The position numbers and the translations under genes are program-made. 24,000 nt of DNA from Alphaproteobacteria bacterium. Its GTDB lineage: Bacteria; Pseudomonadota; Alphaproteobacteria; Rhodospirillales; Rhodospirillaceae. The notes under the pieces were generated by a model. The model saw only the letters and a program-made list of their open reading frames with translations, did not search any database and was not told the origin of the DNA. Each line of letters opens with the position of its first letter. Positions within the stretch are counted from its first letter, which is position 1. Shown here one piece after another: positions 10,452-23,076 of the stretch. The stretch lies in contig WLXB01000022.1 in NCBI GenBank assembly GCA_012103295.1, positions 1,258-25,257 of the forward strand. The letters are read 5' to 3'.

Positions 10452-11501
10452 TTATTCGACGTCCATATCGACAGGAGCCCACAGGACATCCCGGATATGA
10501 TCAGCCCCAGTCAACAACATAATCAACCTGTCGACGCCTAACGCCATGCCGGCTGACTCTGGTACCTGCGCTAAAGCGGACAAGAAGTCTTCGTCAATTG
10601 GCGGCGCCTCACCATGCAACCGCGCATACGCTGACTGATCTCGTGAGAAACGACGCCGCTGTTCAATTGGGTCTGTTAGTTCAGAAAACCCGTTGGCCAG
10701 TTCGATACCACAAGCGTAGGCCTCAACCCGCTCGCAGACCCTACTATCTGCTGCCTTGGGGCGAGCCAACGCGCCCACGGGAGTTGGGAAATCCGTAAGC
10801 AACGTCGGTGGTCCGTCAGATATTTGGGGTTCAATACACTCCAGCATGACGCGATGAAAAACATCATCCCAACGGTCATTTTCATCACACCGCACGCCCG
10901 CCGCTTCTGCGCTGGCGACAAATTTTCTCGACGGCAATTCATCTTGACCCGTTACTTCGGCCAGAAGGTCAATGCCTGCATATTCGGCGAACGCTTGCGA
11001 TACACTCAGTTTATTCCAGGCCTGATTGATATCAGTGGAATAGCCCCTGTGCCGGAAACACGCCTGGCCGACGGCGGCGGCGGCTGACGACGCAAGATTG
11101 ATGACATCCTCCATCAACGCGTCGTAAGTCGCTTGTGCGCGATACCATTCCAATAACGTGAATTCAGGGTGGTGAAGATGCCCCTCTTCACCATCCCGAT
11201 AGACGTGGCAGATCTGAAATATCTTTTGCTCACCTGCTGCCAAGAGTTTCTTCATACAAAACTCTGGTGACGTATGAAGAAAGCGACGGCGATCAGCGCT
11301 TTCGAATGGGCCACGCACATTGACTTTGAAGGGACGAATGTGGCGATCAATGCCTGGCGACACCTGAATCGCCGGCGTGTCGACCTCTATGAATCCCTGA
11401 CCGGTGAGATATTCTCGCACCGCGCCAATTGCCTGGTTCCTGACCTGGAGATTTGCTCGCCGTCTGGAAAAGGCTGATTGATCCCACCACGTTTCAGGCA
11501 T
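10452..11501 (-). CDS. epmA: EF-P lysine beta-lysyltransferase (PoxA/GenX, truncated class II LysRS paralogue)
   Basis: 349 aa. Class II aaRS motif 2 (HHPEFTLLEWY) and motif 3 (GMALGVDRLIMLL) are present, plus GIELANGFSELTD. The protein is collinear with E. coli EpmA and divergent from efp. Confidence 0.85.
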   Translation of the reverse strand: MPETWWDQSAFSRRRANLQVRNQAIGAVREYLTGQGFIEVDTPAIQVSPGIDRHIRPFKVNVRGPFESADRRRFLHTSPEFCMKKLLAAGEQKIFQICHVYRDGEEGHLHHPEFTLLEWYRAQATYDALMEDVINLASSAAAAVGQACFRHRGYSTDINQAWNKLSVSQAFAEYAGIDLLAEVTGQDELPSRKFVASAEAAGVRCDENDRWDDVFHRVMLECIEPQISDGPPTLLTDFPTPVGALARPKAADSRVCERVEAYACGIELANGFSELTDPIEQRRRFSRDQSAYARLHGEAPPIDEDFLSALAQVPESAGMALGVDRLIMLLTGADHIRDVLWAPVDMDVE

Positions 11502-11634: not shown

Positions 11635-12201
11635 ATGAAAATTCAAGCCAATACAATGCGCCCAGGAATGGTGATTGAACACCAAGACAAGCAGTGGACC
11701 GTCCTCAAGATCGAACTGCTGCAACCGGGAAAAGGTGGCGCGTTCATACAAGTAGAAATGCGAGACATTGCGTCGGGCAACAAATCCAACGACAGGTGGC
11801 GCACTCAAGATTCCGTTGAGAAGCTAGAAGTGCGGGAGCGTGATAGCCAGTATCTCTACCAGGACGACGACATTTATACATTCATGGACACAGAGACTTT
11901 TGAGCAATTCACTCTGACTGGAGACGATCTGGGTGAAAAGGCCCCCTTCCTACAAGAGGGAATGGCCGTCACAACGTCGACGATCGAAGGCAAGCCTGTA
12001 GACATTAATCTACCCATGCACATCACCTTAGAAGTCGTTGAGGCTGACGCCGTGGTCAAAGGTCAAACGGCAGCGTCTTCCTATAAGCCAGGTGTTCTAG
12101 AGAACGGTGTTAAGGTTATGATCCCACCATTCGTAGAAGCTGGAACGCGGATTGTCATAAATACGACCGACGGCACGTACGTCGAACGCGCCAAGGACTG
12201 A
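11635..12201 (+). CDS. efp: Translation elongation factor P
   Basis: 188 aa. The loop QPGKGGAF places a Lys at residue 33, equivalent to E. coli K34. The three-domain EF-P length and pattern are present. Confidence 0.95.
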   Translation: MKIQANTMRPGMVIEHQDKQWTVLKIELLQPGKGGAFIQVEMRDIASGNKSNDRWRTQDSVEKLEVRERDSQYLYQDDDIYTFMDTETFEQFTLTGDDLGEKAPFLQEGMAVTTSTIEGKPVDINLPMHITLEVVEADAVVKGQTAASSYKPGVLENGVKVMIPPFVEAGTRIVINTTDGTYVERAKD

Positions 12202-12211
12202 GGCAGCTCAA

Positions 12212-13027
12212 ATGGCGGTCCGCTCCGCAATCCTCAATGTGATGGTCGGTGCCGCCGAAAAAGCTTCGCGGACCATGAAACGTGACTTTGGCGAGGTAGA
12301 AAACCTTCAAGTGTCACGTAAAGGCACCAATGACTTCGTTACGATTGCCGATACACGGACCGAAAAGACTCTTCAATATGAGTTAGCTAAGGCGAGACCA
12401 GCATTCGGTTTCATCATGGAAGAATCCGGCGTCATTGAGGGTGAAGACCCAAACCGCACATGGATCATTGACCCGATTGATGGCACGACAAACTTTATCC
12501 ATGGCATTCCGCATTTTGCGATCTCGATCGCGCTGCAGGAGCATGGTGAATTGGTCGCCGCGCTCGTCTACGCGCCCGTTTTTGATGAGATGTTCCTTGC
12601 TGAAAAAGGACAAGGTGCGACCTACAACAACCGACGCCTCAGGGTTTCCTCACGCACAGAACTAAGCGATTGCGTCTTGGCCACGGGAATCCCCCACCTT
12701 GGACGAGGTGATCACGAAGCCTACCTCCCCCAACTCACGTCGGTGATGGAAGCAACCGCAGGCGTTCGCCGTTTTGGTTCAGCAGCTTTAGATTTAGCGT
12801 ACGTTGCAGCTGGCAGGTTCGACGGATTCTGGGAAACAGGCCTGCAATCCTGGGATGTCGCCGCGGGCATATTGTTGGTCCGCGAAGCCGGTGGTTTTGT
12901 AACGGAAATCAATGGTAAGGGTGAAGCTCTTGGTGGCGAATCCATCTTGGCCGCCAATCCGCGGCTCCATCAACCGCTCAGCAACCTTCTGACAGGCAAA
13001 AAGACCGAGCGGCTCCGGGCGCGATAA
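12212..13027 (+). CDS. suhB: Inositol monophosphatase family protein (SuhB-like)
   Basis: 271 aa. IMPase motifs WIIDPIDGTTNF and WDVAAG are present. Confidence 0.85.
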   Translation: MAVRSAILNVMVGAAEKASRTMKRDFGEVENLQVSRKGTNDFVTIADTRTEKTLQYELAKARPAFGFIMEESGVIEGEDPNRTWIIDPIDGTTNFIHGIPHFAISIALQEHGELVAALVYAPVFDEMFLAEKGQGATYNNRRLRVSSRTELSDCVLATGIPHLGRGDHEAYLPQLTSVMEATAGVRRFGSAALDLAYVAAGRFDGFWETGLQSWDVAAGILLVREAGGFVTEINGKGEALGGESILAANPRLHQPLSNLLTGKKTERLRAR

Positions 13028-13061
13028 CTCACGTTGTGCGGTTAGTCGGACATTGTCCGGA

Positions 13062-13088
13062 GGACCACCCTTAGGGTAGGGTTCTTTT
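13062..13088 (+). terminator. Weak candidate terminator after the IMPase gene
   Basis: The hairpin is ggacc-accc tta gggt-a-ggttc (9 bp, one bulge, tight 3-nt loop), followed by only tttt. Confidence 0.3.
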
Positions 13089-13143
13089 GAGAAGGTGTTG
13101 AAACACCTGGTTGGGGACCTCAAATTCAGGATGGAATGTTGGC

Positions 13144-14055
13144 ATGGCTAAGAAACGCGTTACGAGGCGAAGCGCTATACGCGTCGGGCCACAATTATTA
13201 GCAATGCTCTTAGCCCCCGTCGTCATAGCGTCAGGGGCGACAATTGGCCCAGAAGCCGTTGCTCAAAATATCGATGGAGTTTCTGTCAACTTAGGCGTAC
13301 TCGACGATCTCGACCCGATGAAGACTCTCCCCCGGCTCCTGATGCCAAGTTCTCAGCCCACCCGTGGCCGCGTCATTTTAACACCACCCGCGGGCGTTGA
13401 CGCCATAACACCACAGCGCGCGCGTGTCGTGCTGCGCCCACCGCCAGGTGCGCCAACACGCGTTGCATCTGCGCCAAAAATATCTGTGCCACCCAAAGCT
13501 CCAGCGGCCCCCGCTCCACCTGTATCGGTAACCGCACCGCCAGCTCCGGCGTCGACTAGCGTACCACAGCCGCCGGCGCCTATCGCCAGCGTCCCAGACA
13601 TATCTCAGTCTGATGACAGCACAGCGACCATAGAAACATCAGGGCCCATCGCTCCATCAGAGGCGACATCGCAGGAGCCCGAGCAGGCAACTGAACGCAG
13701 TCAAGCTGAGCAGGTCGCAGCGTTACCGAAGCCAGATTCTGATGCCGGGACGGTTTCCGTCGCTTTCGGAGTCGAGGAAACTGACCTTCCATCATCAGCA
13801 GCAGCCACGCTCACACCGGTGGCTGAGCGGATGAAATCTGACACAGAGCTTCGCGTCCAGTTACTCGCATACGCCAGTAGTGCAGACGGATCTCCAAGTA
13901 GTGTGCGCAGAAAATCTCTTAGCCGTGCACTGTCGGTTCGAGAGTTCCTAATGGATCAAGGCGTTCAAAGTACACGCATCGAAGTTAGAGCCCTGGGAGA
14001 CAAGGTTGAGGATGGAGCGCCTGACCGGGTCGATGCAGTTGTCGAGCGACGCTGA
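13144..14055 (+). CDS. Anchored or secreted Pro-rich protein with C-terminal OmpA-like domain (gene 1 of the stator-like triad)
   Basis: The track start at 13111 is a TTG, so I prefer the ATG at 13144 (303 aa). The N-terminus MAKKRVTRRSAIRVGPQLLAMLLAPVVIASGATIG is a signal or anchor. A Pro/Ala-rich spacer of about 110 aa follows. The C-terminus reads LRVQLLAYASSADGS...SLSRALSVREFLMDQGV...RIEVRALGD, matching the OmpA-C-like pattern. The SRALSV motif is identical to the one in gene 3. Confidence 0.65.
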   Translation: MAKKRVTRRSAIRVGPQLLAMLLAPVVIASGATIGPEAVAQNIDGVSVNLGVLDDLDPMKTLPRLLMPSSQPTRGRVILTPPAGVDAITPQRARVVLRPPPGAPTRVASAPKISVPPKAPAAPAPPVSVTAPPAPASTSVPQPPAPIASVPDISQSDDSTATIETSGPIAPSEATSQEPEQATERSQAEQVAALPKPDSDAGTVSVAFGVEETDLPSSAAATLTPVAERMKSDTELRVQLLAYASSADGSPSSVRRKSLSRALSVREFLMDQGVQSTRIEVRALGDKVEDGAPDRVDAVVERR

Positions 14056-14088
14056 ATGACTCTTCGGAGATAGATTCATGGTGCCGGA

Positions 14089-15303
14089 ATGACTGACACC
14101 ACACGCTTCCTCACACGGATGACGCTGTTCCTGGTCGCAGGATCTATAGCTGGCGCATTTCTATACGGAACCCTGGTTGAAGCCTTTATGGCCAATCCAC
14201 TTCTAAACGGATTGATTCTCGGCGTTCTTCTCATCGGTATTATTTTAAACGTGCGTCAAGTTCTGATGCTCAGACCGGAAGCTGAGTGGTTAGAATCATT
14301 CCAGGACAAAGGCGCTCAGGAGAAAAGTGAAGGTGGGCACAGCGCGGATGAGGCCCCGCCGCCTCTATCCGGAAGTGGGCCGAAGTTACTTTCGCCAATG
14401 GCGCGTATGTTGGCCGAGAGCCAAAGTCGAGGCGGAAAGTTCTCTCTCAGTGCTCAGGCCATGCGAACTCTTCTGGACGGTATTGCGTCGCGCCTTGAAG
14501 AATCTCGCGATCTAGCGCGGTATTTTGTCGGACTCTCAATCTTTCTGGGCTTACTCGGTACGTTCTGGGGATTGCTCGGCACCGTTGCGTCTGTCGGAGA
14601 CGTCATTCGCAACCTATCCATTACGGGAGAAGACATATCGCTGGTCTTCAATGATCTAAAAGCCGGTCTTGAAGCGCCACTCGACGGTATGGGTACGGCA
14701 TTTTCCTCTTCGCTGTTTGGTTTAGCTGGCTCTTTAGTTCTTGGCTTCCTTGATTTGCAAGCCGGTCAGGCACAGAACGCGTTTTACAACGATCTCGAAG
14801 AATGGCTATCGGGTATGACCCGGCTTTCGTCGGGAACCAGTCTGAGCGAAGGTGAACAGGGCGTTTCGGCATATACCGAAGCACTACTAGAGCAAACCGC
14901 TGAGAGCCTGGACGAACTCCAGCGGATATTGGGCCGCGGCGAGGAAAGCCGTATCGCCGGCAACCAGCATTTCGCAACCATGAACGATAAATTGACTCTG
15001 TTAACTGAACAGATGAAAGCTGAACAACAAGTCTTACTAAAGATGGCTGGAAACCAAAAAGACCTTTCCCCCCTCCTGGAAAAGGTCGGTGCTCTTGGTG
15101 ACGCACTCGCTCAACCGCAAGACTCTGGTATGGACGACGGCACCAAGACTCATATTCGAAATATTGATCAATCCTTGAATCGTTTGGTTTCAGAACTCAC
15201 AGCCGGCCGCGACCAAATGGTCAAAGACCTAAGGTCAGAAATCAAACTGCTCGCAAAGACGGTCGCAGCATCCAGCAGCCGCCCCGATACGTCGGAAAGC
15301 TAG
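14089..15303 (+). CDS. MotA/TolQ/ExbB-family proton-channel protein with a long C-terminal helical tail (gene 2 of the triad)
   Basis: 404 aa with four hydrophobic segments at about residues 11-31, 37-55, 143-170 and 200-224. The TM3 motif FLGLLGTFWGLLGTV parallels TolQ VGLFGTVWGIMNTF in this same window. TM4 GTAFSSSLFGLAGSLVLGF parallels AEALFATALGLVAAIPAV. About 180 aa of heptad-like tail follow TM4. Confidence 0.75.
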   Translation: MTDTTRFLTRMTLFLVAGSIAGAFLYGTLVEAFMANPLLNGLILGVLLIGIILNVRQVLMLRPEAEWLESFQDKGAQEKSEGGHSADEAPPPLSGSGPKLLSPMARMLAESQSRGGKFSLSAQAMRTLLDGIASRLEESRDLARYFVGLSIFLGLLGTFWGLLGTVASVGDVIRNLSITGEDISLVFNDLKAGLEAPLDGMGTAFSSSLFGLAGSLVLGFLDLQAGQAQNAFYNDLEEWLSGMTRLSSGTSLSEGEQGVSAYTEALLEQTAESLDELQRILGRGEESRIAGNQHFATMNDKLTLLTEQMKAEQQVLLKMAGNQKDLSPLLEKVGALGDALAQPQDSGMDDGTKTHIRNIDQSLNRLVSELTAGRDQMVKDLRSEIKLLAKTVAASSSRPDTSES

Positions 15304-15319
15304 GTCGTAGAGAAACCCG

Positions 15320-16540
15320 ATGGCACTGGCCCGCCGCACGCGTCGCACCACAGATATTTGGCCAGGGTTTGTCGACGCCCTTTCGACTCTTCTCATAATT
15401 ATCATTTTCATTTTAATGGTCTTTGTTCTCGGCCAATTTTTTCTGGGCCAAGCGCTGTCAGGGCGTGACGCTGCCCTTGAACGACTTACGGCTCAGGTCA
15501 ATGAACTTGGTGAAATGTTAGCGCTTGAGCGGCAAGCCAATACGGATCTAACACTCAACGTATCCCAATTGTCCGACCAACTGCAGGCTGCGAACATAGA
15601 GCTTGATGATTTAGCATCTCTACGAATGGAGAACCGACAACTACTCGGACAAATCGAAACACAAGATGCGGATGCGCGAGCTCGCGAAGCCGAACTAGCG
15701 CGAATGCAGACGGCAATCAACGCCGCGTTAGAAGCGGCGGAGGCTGATCAAACCCAGATTACAGAGCAACGCCAACAGCTAGCGCTGCTGCAACAGAATA
15801 TTAGAGCGCTTGAGGCCTTGAAAGCAGAGTTAGAGACAGAAATCTCTCGATTAGGCGATACCCTTGTCGAGCGCGACCGCGAAGTTGCAGAAGAACGCCA
15901 GGTATCTGTAGCAGCCAGAGCTCAGGCCGCACTAATGAGCCAGCAGTTGGAAGCGCTTAGGCAAGAGCTTGCCCGATTGGCAGAAACATTAGATGCCTCT
16001 GACGCGCTCTCAGTAGAACAGCGAGCCCAGATTGCCGACCTCGGGCGTAGAATGAACAGAGCCCTGGCAGGAAAAGTGCAAGAACTGCAGAGATACCGAT
16101 CCGAGTTCTTTGGCCGCCTTAGGGACATTTTGGGGACCCGGCCCGGCATTCAAGTCGTCGGTGACCGCTTTGTGTTCCAATCTGAAGTGCTATTTGCAAG
16201 TGGATCAGCTGAATTAGCGGCTGAGGGTCAACGTCAACTGGCCCAACTGGCGAAGACGCTCATCGATATTTCCCGCGACATACCAGAAGAGGTGGATTGG
16301 ATCATGCGGGTCGACGGCCATACCGACGATGTACCCATCAGTACCGCCACTTTTCGGTCAAACTGGGAGCTCTCGGTCTCACGGGCGCTGTCAGTCGTCC
16401 GCTTTCTGATCACGCAAGGTGTGGCACCAGAGCGCCTCGCCGCGGCAGGTTTTGGCGAGTATCAGCCAATTGACACCGCTAAAACCGGCTTAGCCCGGGG
16501 CAAAAACCGCCGAATTGAGCTAAAATTAGACCAAAGATAG
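15320..16540 (+). CDS. MotB-like protein: N-terminal TM with channel Asp, long coiled coil, C-terminal OmpA-like peptidoglycan-binding domain (gene 3 of the triad)
   Basis: 406 aa. WPGFVDALSTLLIIIIFILMVF carries Asp19 at the cytoplasmic end of the TM, comparable to TolR PMVDVMLVLL. Residues about 45-265 are Q/E/A/L-rich coiled coil. The C-terminus VDGHTDDVP...SNWELSVSRALSVVRFL...GFGEYQP...NRRIELKL is a canonical OmpA-C-like domain. Confidence 0.8.
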   Translation: MALARRTRRTTDIWPGFVDALSTLLIIIIFILMVFVLGQFFLGQALSGRDAALERLTAQVNELGEMLALERQANTDLTLNVSQLSDQLQAANIELDDLASLRMENRQLLGQIETQDADARAREAELARMQTAINAALEAAEADQTQITEQRQQLALLQQNIRALEALKAELETEISRLGDTLVERDREVAEERQVSVAARAQAALMSQQLEALRQELARLAETLDASDALSVEQRAQIADLGRRMNRALAGKVQELQRYRSEFFGRLRDILGTRPGIQVVGDRFVFQSEVLFASGSAELAAEGQRQLAQLAKTLIDISRDIPEEVDWIMRVDGHTDDVPISTATFRSNWELSVSRALSVVRFLITQGVAPERLAAAGFGEYQPIDTAKTGLARGKNRRIELKLDQR

Positions 16541-16621
16541 TACGGCCCTTGATCACTGAGGGGTCTTGCTTCCGGGTATCTGGTTCGCTATACCCCAGCG
16601 ACTTTTCATACGAGGCACATA

Positions 16622-16846
16622 ATGAAAAAAGATATTCATCCCGATTATCATGACATTACGGTGATCATGACGGACGGCAGCGAGTACACGACCCGCAGCA
16701 CTATGGGCAAAGAAGGCGATACAATCCGTCTTGACGTTGATCCCAAGACTCACCCTGCGTGGACCGGCGTGCACCGTCTGCTTGATTCAGGTGGCCAACT
16801 TGCCAAATTTAACAAGCGCTTTTCTACATTTGGCTTAAAGAACTAA
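16622..16846 (+). CDS. rpmE: 50S ribosomal protein L31 (Cys-less form)
   Basis: 74 aa with [10 protein letters not shown]...THPAWTG...[14 protein letters not shown] lies 7 nt upstream of the ATG. Confidence 0.95.
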
Positions 16847-16870
16847 TTTCGGCCAAATACCAAATATGGT

Positions 16871-16900
16871 AGCCGCCTTCTTCGGAAGGCGGCTTTTTTT
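16871..16900 (+). terminator. Rho-independent terminator of rpmE
   Basis: The hairpin is agccgccttc-ttcg-gaaggcggct, followed by a T7 run. Confidence 0.9.
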
Positions 16901-16966
16901 GTGTCTAAGGCGAACCTTTAGCCAATTTGTGCGTTAGTCATATAACCGCAACTACCACGAATTCGC

Positions 16967-18832
16967 ATGCTGAGAGTCGTACAATACGAAGTTTATGTCC
17001 TCGACAGAGGCCGGTGGTTCTTCCAATCCCGTTATCCAGGTGCTGAGCGGGACGAAGCCATACTGGATGCTCGGAATACCGAGGTACGGACCGGCTATCC
17101 GACAAAAGTTGTCAAAGATACCTATCATCGCGATCAAAATTATTCGGAAGAGACAACGACCTACACAAGTCCAAATGCCAAGATTCATCTAGCACAAAAC
17201 AAGTCAGCCCCATTGCATTCGAGACAGACGCGGGGAAACCAAACCCACCGCAGCAAAGCAATAGGGAAACCTGGAACAGCGGGAGACCCGCAAAACCGTA
17301 AACCTCTTCAGCCAGTGAGCGACGGAACATTCGTTGTCCGGCTTGTCCTAGCCCTAGGCGGCAGCATGATACTTGCCGCCGCGCTGACTGCGTTACTTGC
17401 AACAGCACTAAACGCTATCAACAAACTAGGCTATCGTGTTTCAAGCGATGCAGGGTCGCAGATTACGATATATTGGTACATCGCCATGTTTCTGTTGAGT
17501 GCCGTCGCGCTCAATAAGGCTTATGTGCCCTGGCGTCAGCTTTTTGCCCGGCGTTCGATCGACGCAGCAGTCGCGCAACACATAGAACCCGCATCACCAC
17601 CTCCAGAAACGCACCTAAAACCGAAGCATCCCGATTCAGAGATCCAAGCTGAAAAAGATCGAGCCGTATTTGAAATGAAAACAATGCGTGGCGACATAGA
17701 TGTCGCCGCTGAACCCGCACAACTCGACGATACCACTGTCTTCGGCACCCTCGATGAGGGCCATACAAGCGACCAAGAATCCGAAAATCCAAAAGACCAC
17801 GAAGGCGTCGTCAATTCAGAGAAGGTAGATGGCAAACAAACTATTGCTCCACCCTCTAACCCAATAGTGGAGGCCAAAAACGAGCTCCAGGACACCCAAA
17901 AACCTAGCGAGGTAGCGCAGGCAACGACTCTCACAGAGATGGACATTGAGCGGTTAATTATGATGCGATTTCTCGGTGACGCCGTCATGACATTACGAGC
18001 CAGTCACGACCAGATGGACGCTAGGACGCAATTTGGAGTTAGCCTCTACTTGGCTGGTGCCGCTTCGGCTTTGGCCGACCAGCGTGGCCTTACTCCTGAT
18101 TCAGAACATGCCGTGTTGTCAGATGCTCTCAAACTCATCGGGCACGGGAACGCCAAGCGAGACTCCTTCTTCACAGCTTATGATGAGAATATGGCGGCCA
18201 AAAAGAATCAGGGCGTTATTGAGGCGGGTCAACAGGCCATGACCCGACACCTTCAATTCACAAACTGCCCTGCCAAAGACTTAGGCGCACTCCTCCAAAA
18301 GTGGGACAAGACAGCGCACTCGCCCACCCCTAGCCTCGGTGATATTTTTCTTCTTACCTATACAAATATATCCGGCACACCGTCGGCCGGAGCTGAGGAC
18401 AGCGATATGAGCAGGCACAATCATAGCGTTCGCCGGGTTTTGGAAAACTGCAATGGCGAGGAGGTGCGCCACACAGGAAAGGGTATTTTTGCCCGGTTCG
18501 CCCACCCAGATGACGCGATCTGCGCAGCTATTTCCATTCAGCAAGACCAGGAGCAAAAGCGAAAATCGGCGGAACCTCTTCCGACGACACGTGTTGCTGT
18601 GGTTGCTAGTCTCTTAGATCAAAGCGATCCAGATTTCTCAGGAGAGGTTTTTAGTTATTGCGACGGCCTTTGCAGGCGCCTTGGAGAGGGCCGGATCGCC
18701 TGCGACGCCACACTCAGTGATGTCTGCACTATTCACGATGTGGTTTTTGACCGCGCCATCCCGAGTGCCCATAGCGGCATTTCAGAACATGGCCCAGCGG
18801 TCGAAATCTTATGGGAACCTTTGCCTGCATAG
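16967..18832 (+). CDS. 2-TM membrane protein with a degenerate class III nucleotidyl-cyclase-like C-terminal domain (pseudo-cyclase paralogue)
   Basis: 621 aa. It shows full-length architectural homology to the next gene. The N-terminal modules align (VVQYEVYVLDRGRWFFQSRY against IEHFEIYYFQNGRWHVHARF). Both have two TMs (about residues 122-148 and 166-183 here). The mid domains align (FLGDAVMTLRASH...GVSLYLAGAAS...VIEAGQQAM). In the C-terminal domain, FLLTYTNISGT replaces FLFTDIVGST and RHTGKGIFARF replaces KHTGDGIMATF. Confidence 0.75.
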   Translation: MLRVVQYEVYVLDRGRWFFQSRYPGAERDEAILDARNTEVRTGYPTKVVKDTYHRDQNYSEETTTYTSPNAKIHLAQNKSAPLHSRQTRGNQTHRSKAIGKPGTAGDPQNRKPLQPVSDGTFVVRLVLALGGSMILAAALTALLATALNAINKLGYRVSSDAGSQITIYWYIAMFLLSAVALNKAYVPWRQLFARRSIDAAVAQHIEPASPPPETHLKPKHPDSEIQAEKDRAVFEMKTMRGDIDVAAEPAQLDDTTVFGTLDEGHTSDQESENPKDHEGVVNSEKVDGKQTIAPPSNPIVEAKNELQDTQKPSEVAQATTLTEMDIERLIMMRFLGDAVMTLRASHDQMDARTQFGVSLYLAGAASALADQRGLTPDSEHAVLSDALKLIGHGNAKRDSFFTAYDENMAAKKNQGVIEAGQQAMTRHLQFTNCPAKDLGALLQKWDKTAHSPTPSLGDIFLLTYTNISGTPSAGAEDSDMSRHNHSVRRVLENCNGEEVRHTGKGIFARFAHPDDAICAAISIQQDQEQKRKSAEPLPTTRVAVVASLLDQSDPDFSGEVFSYCDGLCRRLGEGRIACDATLSDVCTIHDVVFDRAIPSAHSGISEHGPAVEILWEPLPA

Positions 18833-19012: not shown

Positions 19013-20983
19013 ATGGCGATCGAACACTTCGAGATATATTATTTCCAAAATGGCCGATGGCACGTACACGCCCGTTTTGAAGCCGAAGAACGCGAAATCG
19101 CCATCGAGGAAACCAAATCCGTCGAGGCCAATCTTGGTTATCCCGCGCGTGTCATTCGGGAAACTTTTTACCCAGAAACCAATACAACAGAAGAAGTTGT
19201 CACCTATCAGGGCAATCGCGCAAAGAAGATATCGGATTCCGACACGATGTTCGGAGCAAACGCGCAGGCTGGTGGGTCATCGGCAAAGAGCGGTTCCGGT
19301 GGAGGCGGCAAAGCGAGCGGCGGTAGTAAATCCGGTGGGGGCAAGCCTGCACGATCTACTCCACGACCAGAGGGCCGTGGTGCGGGATCAAGTGCTCGCC
19401 AGCAAGCCATCAAGAAAGACGCGAATAAACAGAAACAAAAAACGAGAAAAAAGGCCAAGAGCGCTTTTCTAACTGTTTTGACTGGCTTTGCACTAAGCCT
19501 GCTCGTTGCTGTAATCGGGTCTGTAGCCGTAACACTAATTCTATTCCAATTGGTCGAAGCGGGACTGGTTCCGAACGGGAATCGGAACCCCCTCCTCTTT
19601 GGAACCTTCATTCTTTTGTTCTTCGGTTCGGCCTTTATGCACTTAAACAAGAACTTCAACTTCATGAAGTTGTTCAAGAAGAAACCAAAAGAGAAGCGCG
19701 GACCAGCGCCAAAGACCGTGCCACTCGCACAAAAGAAACCAACGCCGCGTGACGCCTCTGATCTTGCCGATGCCAACATTGATGAGCTTGCTAAACGTGT
19801 GAAAGCAGACGATGCGGAAGGCGACATGACAGTCCCATCTCTTGATGATGATGGCTTTGAGTCTGATCAGCCATCCGACAAGAGCGGCGACAAAAAACCG
19901 AAAGAAAAAGAAAAAGAGAAACCAAAAGACGAGAAAAAAGAAAAAGCCGAAAAAAAGAAGGAAGAAGAGCGTAAGAAAAAAGAAGCCGAGAAAAAATCCA
20001 AGCAGGATGAGGAAAAACGTAAGGCGGCAGAAAAAAAGAAAAAGGAAAAGAGCCCCGTAGACACAGTCAAACCGGACTTTCTCAAATTCCTTACAGATGC
20101 GGTGACATCGATTCAGGCAGAGCACCCACAACTGAACACGTTTAGTAAATTTGGAATGAATTTGTATATGTGTGGAGCCTGCTCAACTATTTGTCAGGCT
20201 AAGGGCTTGGCCAACGACGTGATGCTAACATTGCTAAAGAATGGCTTGGGCTTGATCGGAACAAATGCTTCGAGCGCTCAATCATTCTGCGACGACATCC
20301 CAACCCATGGAAGCAATCCACGGTACGCGGGCATGATCCAGGCAGGAAGCCAAGCCATGCAGAATTTCATGGGTGGACAACCGAACATAAATGCAGGGTT
20401 AAGCGGCCTGCTGACAGAGTGGAATTTGCCCGAAAAGCGGGCTGCCGTACCCAATATGTTTACCTTCCTCTTTACCGATATCGTTGGGTCTACAGCGATG
20501 ACCCAACGCCTCGGCAATGCCGGCGCACAAAAAGCAGTACGTGCGCACAACGACGCCGTCCGGGGCGCCATTCAGCAGTATAATGGTCGTGAAGTTAAGC
20601 ATACGGGCGATGGCATCATGGCCACGTTCCCCGACGGCCCATCAGCTGTCGCTGCATCAATCCAAATGTTGCAGGGTGTGGTCTCCCACAATCAGGCCAG
20701 CCCTGACGTTCCCGTTGAAATTAGAGTTGGCGTCAATACAGGTGAAGCCGTGGAAGAAGAGAATGACTTCTTTGGGCAAGCTGTACAAATGACCGCACGA
20801 ATCTGCGATAAGGCAGCGGACGGCCACGCCTGGGTATCAGAGATAATCGTCGACGCATGCCAGGGCCAAAAATTCAAATTCCTACCCCGGGGTGAATTTG
20901 AAATGAAGGGCATAGAAAAGCCGAAGTCATTATTTGAAATCGCATGGACTGACACACATCGAGATGAGTTAGCAGATCTATAG
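19013..20983 (+). CDS. 2-TM membrane-anchored class III adenylate/guanylate cyclase
   Basis: 656 aa. The C-terminal 174 aa match the class III cyclase pattern: FLFTDIVGST (metal Asp489), VKHTGDGIMATF (Lys529, metal Asp533), IRVGVNTGEAV, FFGQAVQMTARI. TMs lie at about residues 151-181 and 193-210, flanked by basic residues. A Lys/Glu-rich segment of about 58 aa is also present. Confidence 0.85.
   Translation: MAIEHFEIYYFQNGRWHVHARFEAEEREIAIEETKSVEANLGYPARVIRETFYPETNTTEEVVTYQGNRAKKISDSDTMFGANAQAGGSSAKSGSGGGGKASGGSKSGGGKPARSTPRPEGRGAGSSARQQAIKKDANKQKQKTRKKAKSAFLTVLTGFALSLLVAVIGSVAVTLILFQLVEAGLVPNGNRNPLLFGTFILLFFGSAFMHLNKNFNFMKLFKKKPKEKRGPAPKTVPLAQKKPTPRDASDLADANIDELAKRVKADDAEGDMTVPSLDDDGFESDQPSDKSGDKKPKEKEKEKPKDEKKEKAEKKKEEERKKKEAEKKSKQDEEKRKAAEKKKKEKSPVDTVKPDFLKFLTDAVTSIQAEHPQLNTFSKFGMNLYMCGACSTICQAKGLANDVMLTLLKNGLGLIGTNASSAQSFCDDIPTHGSNPRYAGMIQAGSQAMQNFMGGQPNINAGLSGLLTEWNLPEKRAAVPNMFTFLFTDIVGSTAMTQRLGNAGAQKAVRAHNDAVRGAIQQYNGREVKHTGDGIMATFPDGPSAVAASIQMLQGVVSHNQASPDVPVEIRVGVNTGEAVEEENDFFGQAVQMTARICDKAADGHAWVSEIIVDACQGQKFKFLPRGEFEMKGIEKPKSLFEIAWTDTHRDELADL
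19885..20052 (+). repeat. Purine-rich low-complexity tract encoding the Lys/Glu-rich segment of the cyclase
   Basis: About 170 nt are almost entirely A/G, with several A6-A7 runs. They encode DKKPKEKEKEKPKDEKKEKAEKKKEEERKKKEAEKKSKQDEEKRKAAEKKKKEK. Confidence 0.9.
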
Positions 20984-22401: not shown

Positions 22402-23076
22402 ATGGCTTTGCCGCTAATGCCAAAAGCGACTGCAGTTTGGCTGGTCGACAACACGACACTCACCTTCACGCAAATTGCCGACTTTACCGGCATGCATGAG
22501 CTTGAAGTTCAAGCGATAGCAGACGGAGAAGTCGCTGTTGGTATTGTCGGTGTTGATCCAACAAGCAATGGGCAACTCAGCGCCGACGAAATAAAGCGCG
22601 GCGAGGATAAAGCTGGGTACAGCCTTAAGCTTAGCAGATCAGATATTCCCAAGCCTAAAGCCCGATCTAAGGGCGCGCGTTATACACCTGTTTCAAAACG
22701 GCAGGAGCGCCCTGATGCCATCGCTTGGCTTTTGCGCCACCATCCAGAGCTTGCCGACTCACAAGTCTCTCGTTTACTAGGCACGACAAAGCCGACGATC
22801 AACTCGATCCGTGAACGCACTCATTGGAATATGCAAAACATTAAACCGCAAAACCCCGTAACTTTAGGGTTATGCAACGAACCTGATTTGCAAAAGGCTC
22901 TGGCCCTGGCAGCGCGTCGAGCAAAAAAAGCGGGTATAGAACTGCCCAAACCTGCCCCAGATGTCGAACAGCCTGCTGAAGAGCAAAGTGCACCTGAAGA
23001 GACAGCTCCCACAGCCCCCGCCGCCCCCGAAGTCACAGCTGAAAATCTATTCCGTCCAAGCACGGCTGAAAACTAG
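22402..23076 (+). CDS. DUF1013-family protein (alphaproteobacterial; annotated in some genomes as cell-cycle regulator TrcR)
   Basis: 224 aa. The family signature is recalled from memory: MALPLMPKATAVWLVDNTTLTFTQIADF...ARYTPVSKRQERPDAIAWLLRHHPEL...TTKPTINSIRERTHWN. The C-terminal tail is Pro/Ala/Glu-rich. Confidence 0.75.
   Translation: MALPLMPKATAVWLVDNTTLTFTQIADFTGMHELEVQAIADGEVAVGIVGVDPTSNGQLSADEIKRGEDKAGYSLKLSRSDIPKPKARSKGARYTPVSKRQERPDAIAWLLRHHPELADSQVSRLLGTTKPTINSIRERTHWNMQNIKPQNPVTLGLCNEPDLQKALALAARRAKKAGIELPKPAPDVEQPAEEQSAPEETAPTAPAAPEVTAENLFRPSTAEN

Follow-up and report, generated by a model that had tools for sequence, protein, structure and literature searches.

Which cellular process might be served by an ion-driven motor whose genes stand beside no gene for a recognisable partner? 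The question is raised by a stretch of 24,000 nucleotides (hereafter the window) from an alphaproteobacterium of the Rhodospirillaceae (assembly GCA_012103295.1, contig WLXB01000022.1, positions 1,258 to 25,257), in which three adjacent genes, here designated g1, g2 and g3, had been described in a first-pass annotation, made from the sequence alone, as an orphan module resembling the stators of ion-driven motors. To our knowledge, each member of this class that has been characterised (flagellar stator, Ton, Tol, gliding, type 9, Zorya) serves one specific output. The analysis presented here favours, with a probability of roughly 0.65, the reading that g2 and g3 constitute an ion-driven motor of the MotAB/ZorAB class that is anchored to peptidoglycan, does not serve the flagellum and is encoded in a vertically inherited housekeeping operon. 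The three genes are as follows.

13144 to 14055, forward strand: g1, secreted proline-rich protein ending in a degenerate OmpA-like domain, 303 amino acids (aa) from its ATG
14089 to 15303, forward strand: g2, channel (A) subunit of the MotA/ExbB/TolQ/ZorA superfamily, 404 aa
15320 to 16540, forward strand: g3, predicted MotB/ZorB-type (B) subunit, NCBIfam PRK09039 'peptidoglycan-binding protein', 406 aa

The genes occupy the same strand with gaps of 33 nucleotides between g1 and g2 and 16 nucleotides between g2 and g3, at the coordinates originally given for them; an alternative TTG start of g1 is present at 13111. In public collections (NCBI), entries identical to g1 and g3 carry the names 'OmpA family protein' and 'peptidoglycan-binding protein', respectively, and the database name of g2 is 'flagellar motor protein MotA'. 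Since exact proteins are present in public collections and the gene order is kept in 80 related genome loci (at 52-92% identity, most of them bearing the label Rhodospirillaceae, Rhodospirillales or unclassified Alphaproteobacteria), the genes lie far beyond what would be expected by chance.

The first step towards an answer is the identity of g2. Against the Pfam family MotA_ExbB (PF01618) the protein scores 21.1 bits (E = 2.7e-4), slightly less than the gathering cutoff of 22.9, and its strongest profile matches are the PADLOC models ZorA1 (1.5e-11) and ZorA3 (7.5e-9). Profile and column tests were extended to 35 diverse relatives that are 34-57% identical to g2. Both ZorA models are matched by all 35, with E-values down to 1e-15, and MotA_ExbB is matched by 23 of them at E <= 0.01 (best 1.1e-8); the coverage of the ZorA profile is partial, amounting to about 180 of its 683 positions. 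As the full-length AlphaFold2 (AF2) monomer model of g2 was poor, with a predicted local distance difference test score (pLDDT) of 62, a model of the core only (residues 1-255) was made from a deeper alignment of 54 sequences, and reached a pLDDT of 78 and a predicted template modelling score (pTM) of 0.69, with values near 90 in the membrane helices. In a Foldseek search of the PDB with the core model, the top 47 matches were all chains of TolQ, ExbB, ZorA or a few MotA proteins, with a probability of about 1, the best TM-scores being those of ZorA 8vvn_D (0.49/0.54), ExbB 7ajq_A (0.47/0.51) and TolQ 9ddm_E (0.45/0.50). The flagellar MotA/PomA chains ranked lowest among these matches, and the full-length model gave the same picture. 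It had been foreseen in the first-pass annotation that such searches might place g2 outside the MotA/ExbB fold; in the core-model search the fold is retained. The kinship of g2 is visible only through the Pfam and PADLOC profiles and the comparison of folds, and these agree in supporting g2 as a divergent channel subunit of the MotA/ExbB/TolQ superfamily, the type to which it had initially been assigned.

Two parts can be distinguished in the protein.

14089 to 14757, forward strand: membrane core of g2, aa 1-223, with four hydrophobic helices at about residues 11-31, 38-60, 145-170 and 201-222 (hydropathy, AF2)
14758 to 15300, forward strand: cytoplasmic helical tail of g2, aa 224-404, with two heptad segments and the terminal motif LRSEIKLLAKTVAA

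The hydropathy profile bears out the four transmembrane helices (TM1 to TM4) proposed at first reading, and a cytoplasmic loop of 85 aa lies between the second and the third. Conservation is maximal in TM3 and TM4 (mean majority fraction 0.78 and 0.87, respectively), where Thr158 (in GLLGTFWG), Thr165 and Ser208 are invariant across the 35 sequences and Thr203 (in GTAFSSS) is invariant among the closer relatives. The resemblance that had been pointed out between GLLGTFWG and the GLFGTVWG of a TolQ encoded elsewhere in the window is real, the segment FLGLLGTFWGLLGTVASVG of g2 and FVGLFGTVWGIMNTFTAIG of that TolQ being identical at 9 of 19 positions with an hhalign probability of 79%. It is, however, restricted to one transmembrane motif of 19-23 residues, and ZorA and ZorB are closer to the pair than TolQ and TolR, which thus cannot be considered the nearest relatives.

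The tail of about 180 aa had been overlooked previously. Its two heptad segments, residues 260-341 (z = 9.0) and 350-396 (z = 5.5), are mutually out of phase, and conserved motifs stand at both of its ends. The alignment of the ZorA1 profile on g2 reaches residue 323, beyond TM4 and into the tail, and most representatives of the family match over the full length of g2 with the tail included. Across relatives, the length of g2 ranges from 367 to 409 aa.

The second step concerns the partner of the channel. Three features were recognised in g3.

15356 to 15448, forward strand: single transmembrane helix of g3, aa 13-43, with Asp19 (codon 15374-15376) in a PGFVD motif
15452 to 16114, forward strand: periplasmic coiled-coil rod of g3, aa 45-265, of a length that varies by lineage
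16190 to 16510, forward strand: OmpA-like peptidoglycan-binding domain of g3, aa 291-397, with conserved GHTD, NWELSxxRA and NRRIE motifs

The protein scores 469.5 bits against the NCBIfam model NF006543 (PRK09039.1-2; curated cutoff 305) and also lies above the cutoffs of NF006544 and NF006545, while in PADLOC it matches ZorB3 at 1.7e-26. After a positively charged N-terminus comes the only transmembrane helix, which is strongly hydrophobic (hydropathy 3.11) and carries Asp19 within WPGFVDALSTLL; the membrane-embedded aspartate noticed at first inspection is therefore confirmed, the motif P[GA][FWY]VD being present in 77 of 79 loci and identical in Sinorhizobium meliloti. The rod consists of one continuous, in-register heptad pattern (z = 16.4, best period 3.50), almost free of Pro and Gly. 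The relatives of g3 range from 342 to 495 aa, and the S. meliloti orthologue (CAC47355/Q92JX6), which is 46% identical, differs from g3 by gaps that total about 64 residues and fall entirely in the coiled coil. The OmpA-like domain matches the full Pfam profile with 60.3 bits, in keeping with its earlier description as canonical, and finds the C-terminal domains of MotB, PomB, MotS and TssL in the PDB at 1e-16 to 1e-10. No match to ExbD (PF02472) was obtained in Pfam, and the comparison that had been drawn with TolR does not hold, as there is no detectable similarity to the TolR of the window past the shared idea of a membrane aspartate. Asp19, the OmpA domain and the ZorB3 match together support g3 as a MotB/ZorB-type partner, the Asp-bearing anchor of the initial proposal, with a predicted capacity to bind peptidoglycan.

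The first gene of the module bears on the question of whether the pair might be a Tol- or Ton-like energiser, in which g2 and g3 would power g1 as a periplasm-spanning transducer of the TolA/TonB type acting at the outer membrane or the peptidoglycan. The relevant features of g1 are as follows.

13144 to 13263, forward strand: Sec signal peptide of g1, aa 1-40, ending in PEAVA with cleavage before QN; single N-terminal hydrophobic segment
13765 to 14004, forward strand: OmpA-like domain of g1, aa 208-287, Pfam OmpA 38.7 bits over profile positions 2-82 of 98

Several properties of g1 speak for such a role. Its residues 46-200 contain 20% Pro, as the description of a Pro-rich stretch had implied, it lies directly upstream of g2 in 73 of the 80 loci, and it combines a conserved N-terminal motif with a C-terminus resembling a peptidoglycan-binding domain. 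The second and more divergent OmpA-like domain ascribed to it is indeed present, weaker in score than that of g3, and the SRALSV string said to be common to the two proteins is found in both; the domain retains SLSRAL, lacks the GHTD and NRRIE motifs, and a BLASTP alignment of g1 with g3 extends over 29 aa only. On the side of g2 and g3, the likeness to TolQR-TolA and ExbBD-TonB comprises the fold of the A subunit (TolQ and ExbB being among the top Foldseek matches), the GLxGTxWG motif and a presumed housekeeping role. The supposed membrane anchor of g1 is nevertheless a cleavable signal peptide, set against the N-terminal membrane helix by which TolA and TonB dock: across the g1 homologues an A-x-A ending followed by Q precedes a V-x-V-[ND]-L-x-V-L-D motif, and there is no lipobox Cys. 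With a signal peptide and no lipobox, g1 can be placed in the periplasm, either soluble or loosely associated, and is not a membrane-anchored transducer like TonB or TolA. The echo of ExbB-ExbD-TonB and TolQ-TolR-TolA that had been perceived in the three-gene layout is superficial only, because g1 is secreted through a signal peptide and ends in a degenerate OmpA-like domain. TolQ and ExbB, moreover, have three helices and no tail, g3 is not of the ExbD/TolR type, and the module has no membrane-anchored transducer.

Nor is g1 an obligate member of a triad, as had been supposed. It is absent in S. meliloti and in five other complete loci (L037, L045, L066-L068), in all of which g2 and g3 persist, and it is thus a lineage-variable accessory gene; since it is missing in these loci, the co-conserved unit is g2-g3. 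One contig pairs g1 with the downstream arrangement of the Sinorhizobium type, which suggests that g1 was present ancestrally and that some lineages have lost it. A genuine Tol set is also encoded elsewhere in the window, as had been recognised earlier:

1429 to 2154: TolQ, Pfam 119 bits
985 to 1425: TolR, Pfam 107 bits

Taken with the points above, an energiser of the Tol/Ton kind appears quite unlikely. An open reading frame (ORF) at 155-973 on the reverse strand follows tolQ-tolR directly, at the place of tolA; Pfam gives no match for it at E <= 0.001, and it is presumably a divergent TolA.

The third step is the genomic setting of the pair. The genes g2 and g3 are adjacent in 79 of the 80 loci, the exception being a contig end, with gaps that are mostly 3-40 nucleotides. 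An inositol monophosphatase (IMPase) gene lies upstream in 73 of these loci and the gene for elongation factor P (EF-P) in 68, and rpmE follows 0.1-6 kb downstream in 57. The order thiE-efp-IMPase-OmpA(g1)-g2-g3-(MFS or ABC)-rpmE-DUF1465, where MFS denotes a major facilitator superfamily transporter and ABC an ATP-binding cassette transporter, is found on two long contigs (L082 and L083), and the S. meliloti locus (L081) has the layout IMPase-g2-g3, an opposite-strand ABC transporter and then rpmE, without g1. The transporter between g3 and rpmE is a same-strand MFS gene in 25 loci and an ABC gene, mostly on the opposite strand, in 19. Examples, in the coordinates of the respective loci, are:

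L040, 7091-8362: transporter between g3 and rpmE
L081, 9011-10825: transporter between g3 and rpmE
L082, 8587-9777: transporter between g3 and rpmE
L083, 8498-10294: transporter between g3 and rpmE

When all flanking ORFs of the 80 loci were clustered, no further conserved partner emerged, only housekeeping genes and the lineage-variable transporter. When 1.84 billion cluster representatives were searched with a profile, 770 clusters (50% identity) reached E <= 1e-30 and 1968 reached E <= 1e-10, and the taxon names of the relatives are almost all alphaproteobacterial. The names obtained through the profile are labels of metagenome-assembled genomes, with no model organism other than Sinorhizobium. 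The viral contig collection and the phage records contained no relatives. The pair thus behaves as a vertically inherited core putative operon of the Alphaproteobacteria, from the Rhodospirillales to Sinorhizobium, and the core-genome setting that had been suggested from the window is borne out by the synteny of the 80 loci, S. meliloti and the two long contigs.

Two observations on the records themselves may be added. Four loci and one protein (L013, L039, L060, L079 and P0040) with the same synteny carry the labels Neomarinimicrobiota, Patescibacteria, Gammaproteobacteria, Sulfotelmatobacter or Acidimicrobiales; these labels of metagenome-assembled genomes probably reflect mis-binning or mislabelling. 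The S. meliloti record (CP090106.1) is titled 'plasmid pSymB' in PLSDB, is 3.72 Mb long and carries rpmE, rpmJ, purEK, thiE and the IMPase gene, and it looks like a mislabelled chromosome.

This setting also bears on whether the pair could be the core of a Zorya-type or related anti-phage system (ZorAB), the effectors of which are encoded elsewhere or have been lost. The likeness to ZorAB is considerable. ZorA1/ZorA3 and ZorB3 give the best profile matches of the two subunits, and 8vvn_D is among the best structural matches. In the A subunit, a cytoplasmic loop close to the membrane is followed by a ZorA-like helical tail from about residue 223, and the B subunit has an N-terminal Asp helix and a C-terminal peptidoglycan-binding domain; in E. 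coli ZorA (EcZorA), according to the Zorya structure papers, the membrane-proximal cytoplasmic domain spans residues 48-127 and the tail begins at residue 223. There are, however, differences. PADLOC recognised no ZorC/D/E/F/G-like or other gene adjacent to the pair, with g1 and the 621-aa protein downstream included, so that the earlier statement that no recognisable output partner is adjacent stands, as it does from the clustering of the flanking ORFs. The pair has no effector genes and occupies a core-genome setting rather than a defence island, its housekeeping flanks (IMPase, EF-P, rpmE, transporters) being kept in order from the Rhodospirillales to Sinorhizobium, and relatives are missing from the viral and phage collections. 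The tail of g2 measures about 180 aa in two heptad segments as against about 500 aa in EcZorA. In comparison with ZorA (TM1-TM3), g2 has an extra N-terminal hydrophobic helix and no beta-hairpin is predicted in its loop, and in g3 the membrane helix and the peptidoglycan domain are separated by a coiled coil of about 220 aa that has no counterpart in ZorB. A defence function of this kind is therefore highly improbable.

A flagellar role is implied by most database names, the source annotations being 'flagellar motor protein MotA' and 'chemotaxis protein MotB', and the pair could on this view be a paralogue of the flagellar stator. It shares with MotAB and PomAB a four-helix A subunit, a B subunit with a membrane aspartate and a MotB-like OmpA C-domain (1e-16 in the PDB search), and the order A-then-B. 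In NCBIfam, however, g2 passes no model and matches no flagellar MotA model at E <= 1, and g3 reaches no more than 62-114 bits with the MotD, MotB and MotS models (cutoffs 250-301), its alignment to them being confined to aa 284-403. The loop of g2 is short and unrelated to the domain that contacts FliG, the g2 tail and the long coiled coil of g3 are absent from MotAB, and MotA/PomA rank lowest among the fold matches. Neither the window nor the conserved flanks contain flagellar genes. In S. meliloti, the flagellar stator genes sit in the flagellar regulon, at a locus different from that of g2-g3. The possibility raised beforehand, that the pair is the flagellar stator of the organism, is thus contradicted by the curated models and by the context.

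Further evidence comes from Komagataeibacter hansenii, in which proteins named MotA and MotB (348 and 321 aa) were described, the former with four helices and the latter with one helix and an OmpA-like domain (Jacek et al. 2018, 2019; PMC6315621, PMC6570709). Their genes lie side by side, are conserved in Alphaproteobacteria and belong to a genome that is reported to be without flagellar and pilus structural genes (PMC6570709, PMC6315621). The published primers specify MTRPTTY at the N-terminus and EFRLTDR at the C-terminus, and the family patterns in the 80 loci are MTRPxx[YF]L and RIE[LF][KR]LT[QD]R; because the primer-encoded termini match these patterns, the K. hansenii proteins are very likely orthologues of g2 and g3. 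On overexpression, cell length was doubled or chains were formed, colony spreading was increased and the cellulose network was looser, while fusions to the green fluorescent protein (GFP) were polar (PMC6570709, PMC6315621). The authors read the genes as motility-related, stated that they did not know which partner takes up the energy, and speculated on division or outer-membrane invagination (PMC6570709, PMC6315621). The wider colony spreading is a point in favour of a flagellar paralogue; the presence of likely orthologues in a genome reported to be free of flagellar genes is a point against it, and with the curated models and the context we regard a flagellar assignment as scarcely tenable.

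How, then, might a motor composed of g2 and g3 operate? By analogy with the solved 5:2 motors, the pair would presumably be assembled as A5:B2, with the two Asp19-bearing helices of the g3 dimer inside a ring of g2. Thr158 and Thr203 of g2 would line the ion path, and ion flow by way of Asp19 and the Thr ring would turn the g2 ring about the fixed g3 dimer, as in these relatives. The g3 dimer would extend its coiled-coil rod into the periplasm, where the OmpA-like end would grip the peptidoglycan, and g1 may help in anchoring or activation there, being dispensable in some lineages. The moving cytoplasmic part would be the helical tail of g2, which at about 180 residues would be a shortened ZorA tail if the analogy holds and would most likely couple the motor to a cytoplasmic partner encoded elsewhere. 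The tail is the likely output because no partner is encoded nearby and because it is conserved in sequence, not merely in helical character; the tail of ZorA provides a precedent. The first-pass proposal of a further motor of the MotA/ExbB plus MotB class is accordingly upheld by the domains, the fold and the conserved residues.

The same proteins could alternatively form a passive tether or spacer between the inner membrane and the peptidoglycan, built on an ancestral stator scaffold. The in-register coiled coil of variable length in g3 resembles a spacer, g3 is named only 'peptidoglycan-binding protein', and no output partner is encoded near the pair. Yet the residues predicted from solved relatives to form the ion path are the best-conserved parts of both proteins, the Asp of g3 being kept in 77 of 79 loci and Thr158 of g2 being invariant, within helices of 0.78-0.87 conservation. 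Since it is the ion path that is most strongly conserved, a passive tether fits poorly and is considered unlikely.

For the motor composed of g2 and g3, a role in the cell envelope or in division and polarity, and not in swimming or phage defence, appears most likely, because of the genomic setting and the phenotypes of overexpression in Komagataeibacter; this is the weakest step of the argument. Several observations weigh against the motor reading as a whole. The g2 protein of the window scores below the Pfam gathering threshold, a profile of the 35 g2 homologues gave no relevant match among all PDB sequences, and the Foldseek E-values of g2 are modest (1e-3 to 3e-2), with TM-scores of about 0.5. 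In g3, Pfam MotB_plug (PF13677) is not matched at E <= 1, and the coiled coil starts right after the membrane helix. The rod of about 220 residues would, if straight, be about 30 nm long (at 0.15 nm per residue), which exceeds the expected distance from the inner membrane to the peptidoglycan. The orthology of the K. hansenii proteins, very likely as it is, is drawn from primer-encoded termini and from reported lengths and features; the functional literature on the family is confined to overexpression and GFP fusions in that species, and no loss-of-function or essentiality data were found in it.

The family is not unrecognised, in that g3 belongs to a curated NCBIfam equivalog and likely orthologues have been overexpressed and localised in Komagataeibacter. 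The name PRK09039 (NF006542-NF006546), of which g3 is a member, covers the peptidoglycan-binding end only, and not the Asp helix, the coiled coil or the channel partner, and NCBIfam holds no curated model for g2. A search of the literature on stator-like or MotAB-like systems in Alphaproteobacteria and on PRK09039 found no mechanistic description of the g2-g3 family. The accessible portions of the Zorya structure papers (E. coli, Shewanella, Sulfuricurvum) make no mention of housekeeping relatives, and a study of MotAB evolution, in its accessible part, leaves out Zorya-like proteins and does not describe the g2-g3 clade (PMC12505986). No protein of MotA or OmpA type is part of the S. meliloti Rgs/Tol-Pal interactome. 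A 235-aa MotA/TolQ/ExbB protein in a Bartonella epitope paper was also considered and set aside, as it is probably TolQ and not a member of the g2 family.

The immediate neighbours of the module in the window are the following.

12212 to 13027, forward strand: IMPase gene (SuhB-type), left neighbour, upstream also in S. meliloti, L082 and L083
16622 to 16894, forward strand: rpmE (L31) with its own Shine-Dalgarno site and a terminator-like hairpin, right neighbour, frequent but not fixed

The coding part of rpmE (16622-16846) begins 81 nucleotides after g3, possesses a GAGG site as the Shine-Dalgarno sequence with which it had been credited, and has a strong hairpin resembling a terminator behind it, at 16871-16894. 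The 'weak hairpin' said to follow the IMPase gene does not surpass shuffled sequence in stability (z = -0.64). A scan for promoters and terminators gave nothing above shuffled sequences except the rpmE terminator, and an Rfam search of positions 12900-17000 revealed no RNA element. An antisense, terminator-like hairpin of 10 bp with a T-run inside g2 (15061-15087, reverse strand) is probably a chance match, because the scan gave 10 sites where 6.1 +/- 2.5 were expected.

Some other genes of the window deserve mention. Downstream of rpmE, two large tandem genes on the forward strand (16967-18832 and 19013-20983), present in about 32 of the 80 loci, are apparent paralogues; tblastn searches with either query reach the same regions of related loci at 24-40% identity. 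The 656-aa protein of this pair carries an adenylate/guanylate cyclase domain at its C-terminus (Pfam 3.4e-14), and the 621-aa protein, which has no Pfam match, may be a degenerate cyclase-like partner. An ORF of 349 aa on the reverse strand (10452-11501), divergent from efp (11635-12201) and found beside efp in 31 of the 80 loci, reads like an EF-P modification enzyme of the EpmA/PoxA type, resembling class II lysyl-tRNA synthetases. A TrcR-family transcriptional cell-cycle regulator (Pfam PF06242, 4.1e-61) is encoded at 22402-23076 on the forward strand, and a similar gene lies downstream in 16 related loci.

What the pair adds to the known motors can be stated briefly. The 5:2 ion-driven motor as a kind is already known and g3 has its catalogue entry; the tail on the A subunit and the long coiled coil on the B subunit are distinct, and we know of no other system in which a ZorA-like cytoplasmic tail is combined with a very long periplasmic coiled coil. 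The two genes are widespread as core genes in a major bacterial class (770 clusters), at a fixed position close to genes of translation, yet they have neither a name nor a known output. Thousands of entries under 'flagellar motor protein MotA' and 'chemotaxis protein MotB' are probably wrong, with the consequence that inferences of motility from genomes can be misled. More speculatively, and as a tentative suggestion only, the pair may be a housekeeping counterpart of Zorya, in which the B subunit held by the rod would report the state or spacing of the wall and the rotating bundle of A tails would pass a signal or mechanical work to a cytoplasmic partner in polarity or division; this would be a new class of 5:2 motor with an intracellular output, possibly the kind of lineage that gave rise to the defence Zorya. 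If the motor reading is true, a cytoplasm-directed output would not be peculiar to phage defence, and Sinorhizobium and Komagataeibacter would offer a tractable entry to an unexplored function of the cell envelope.

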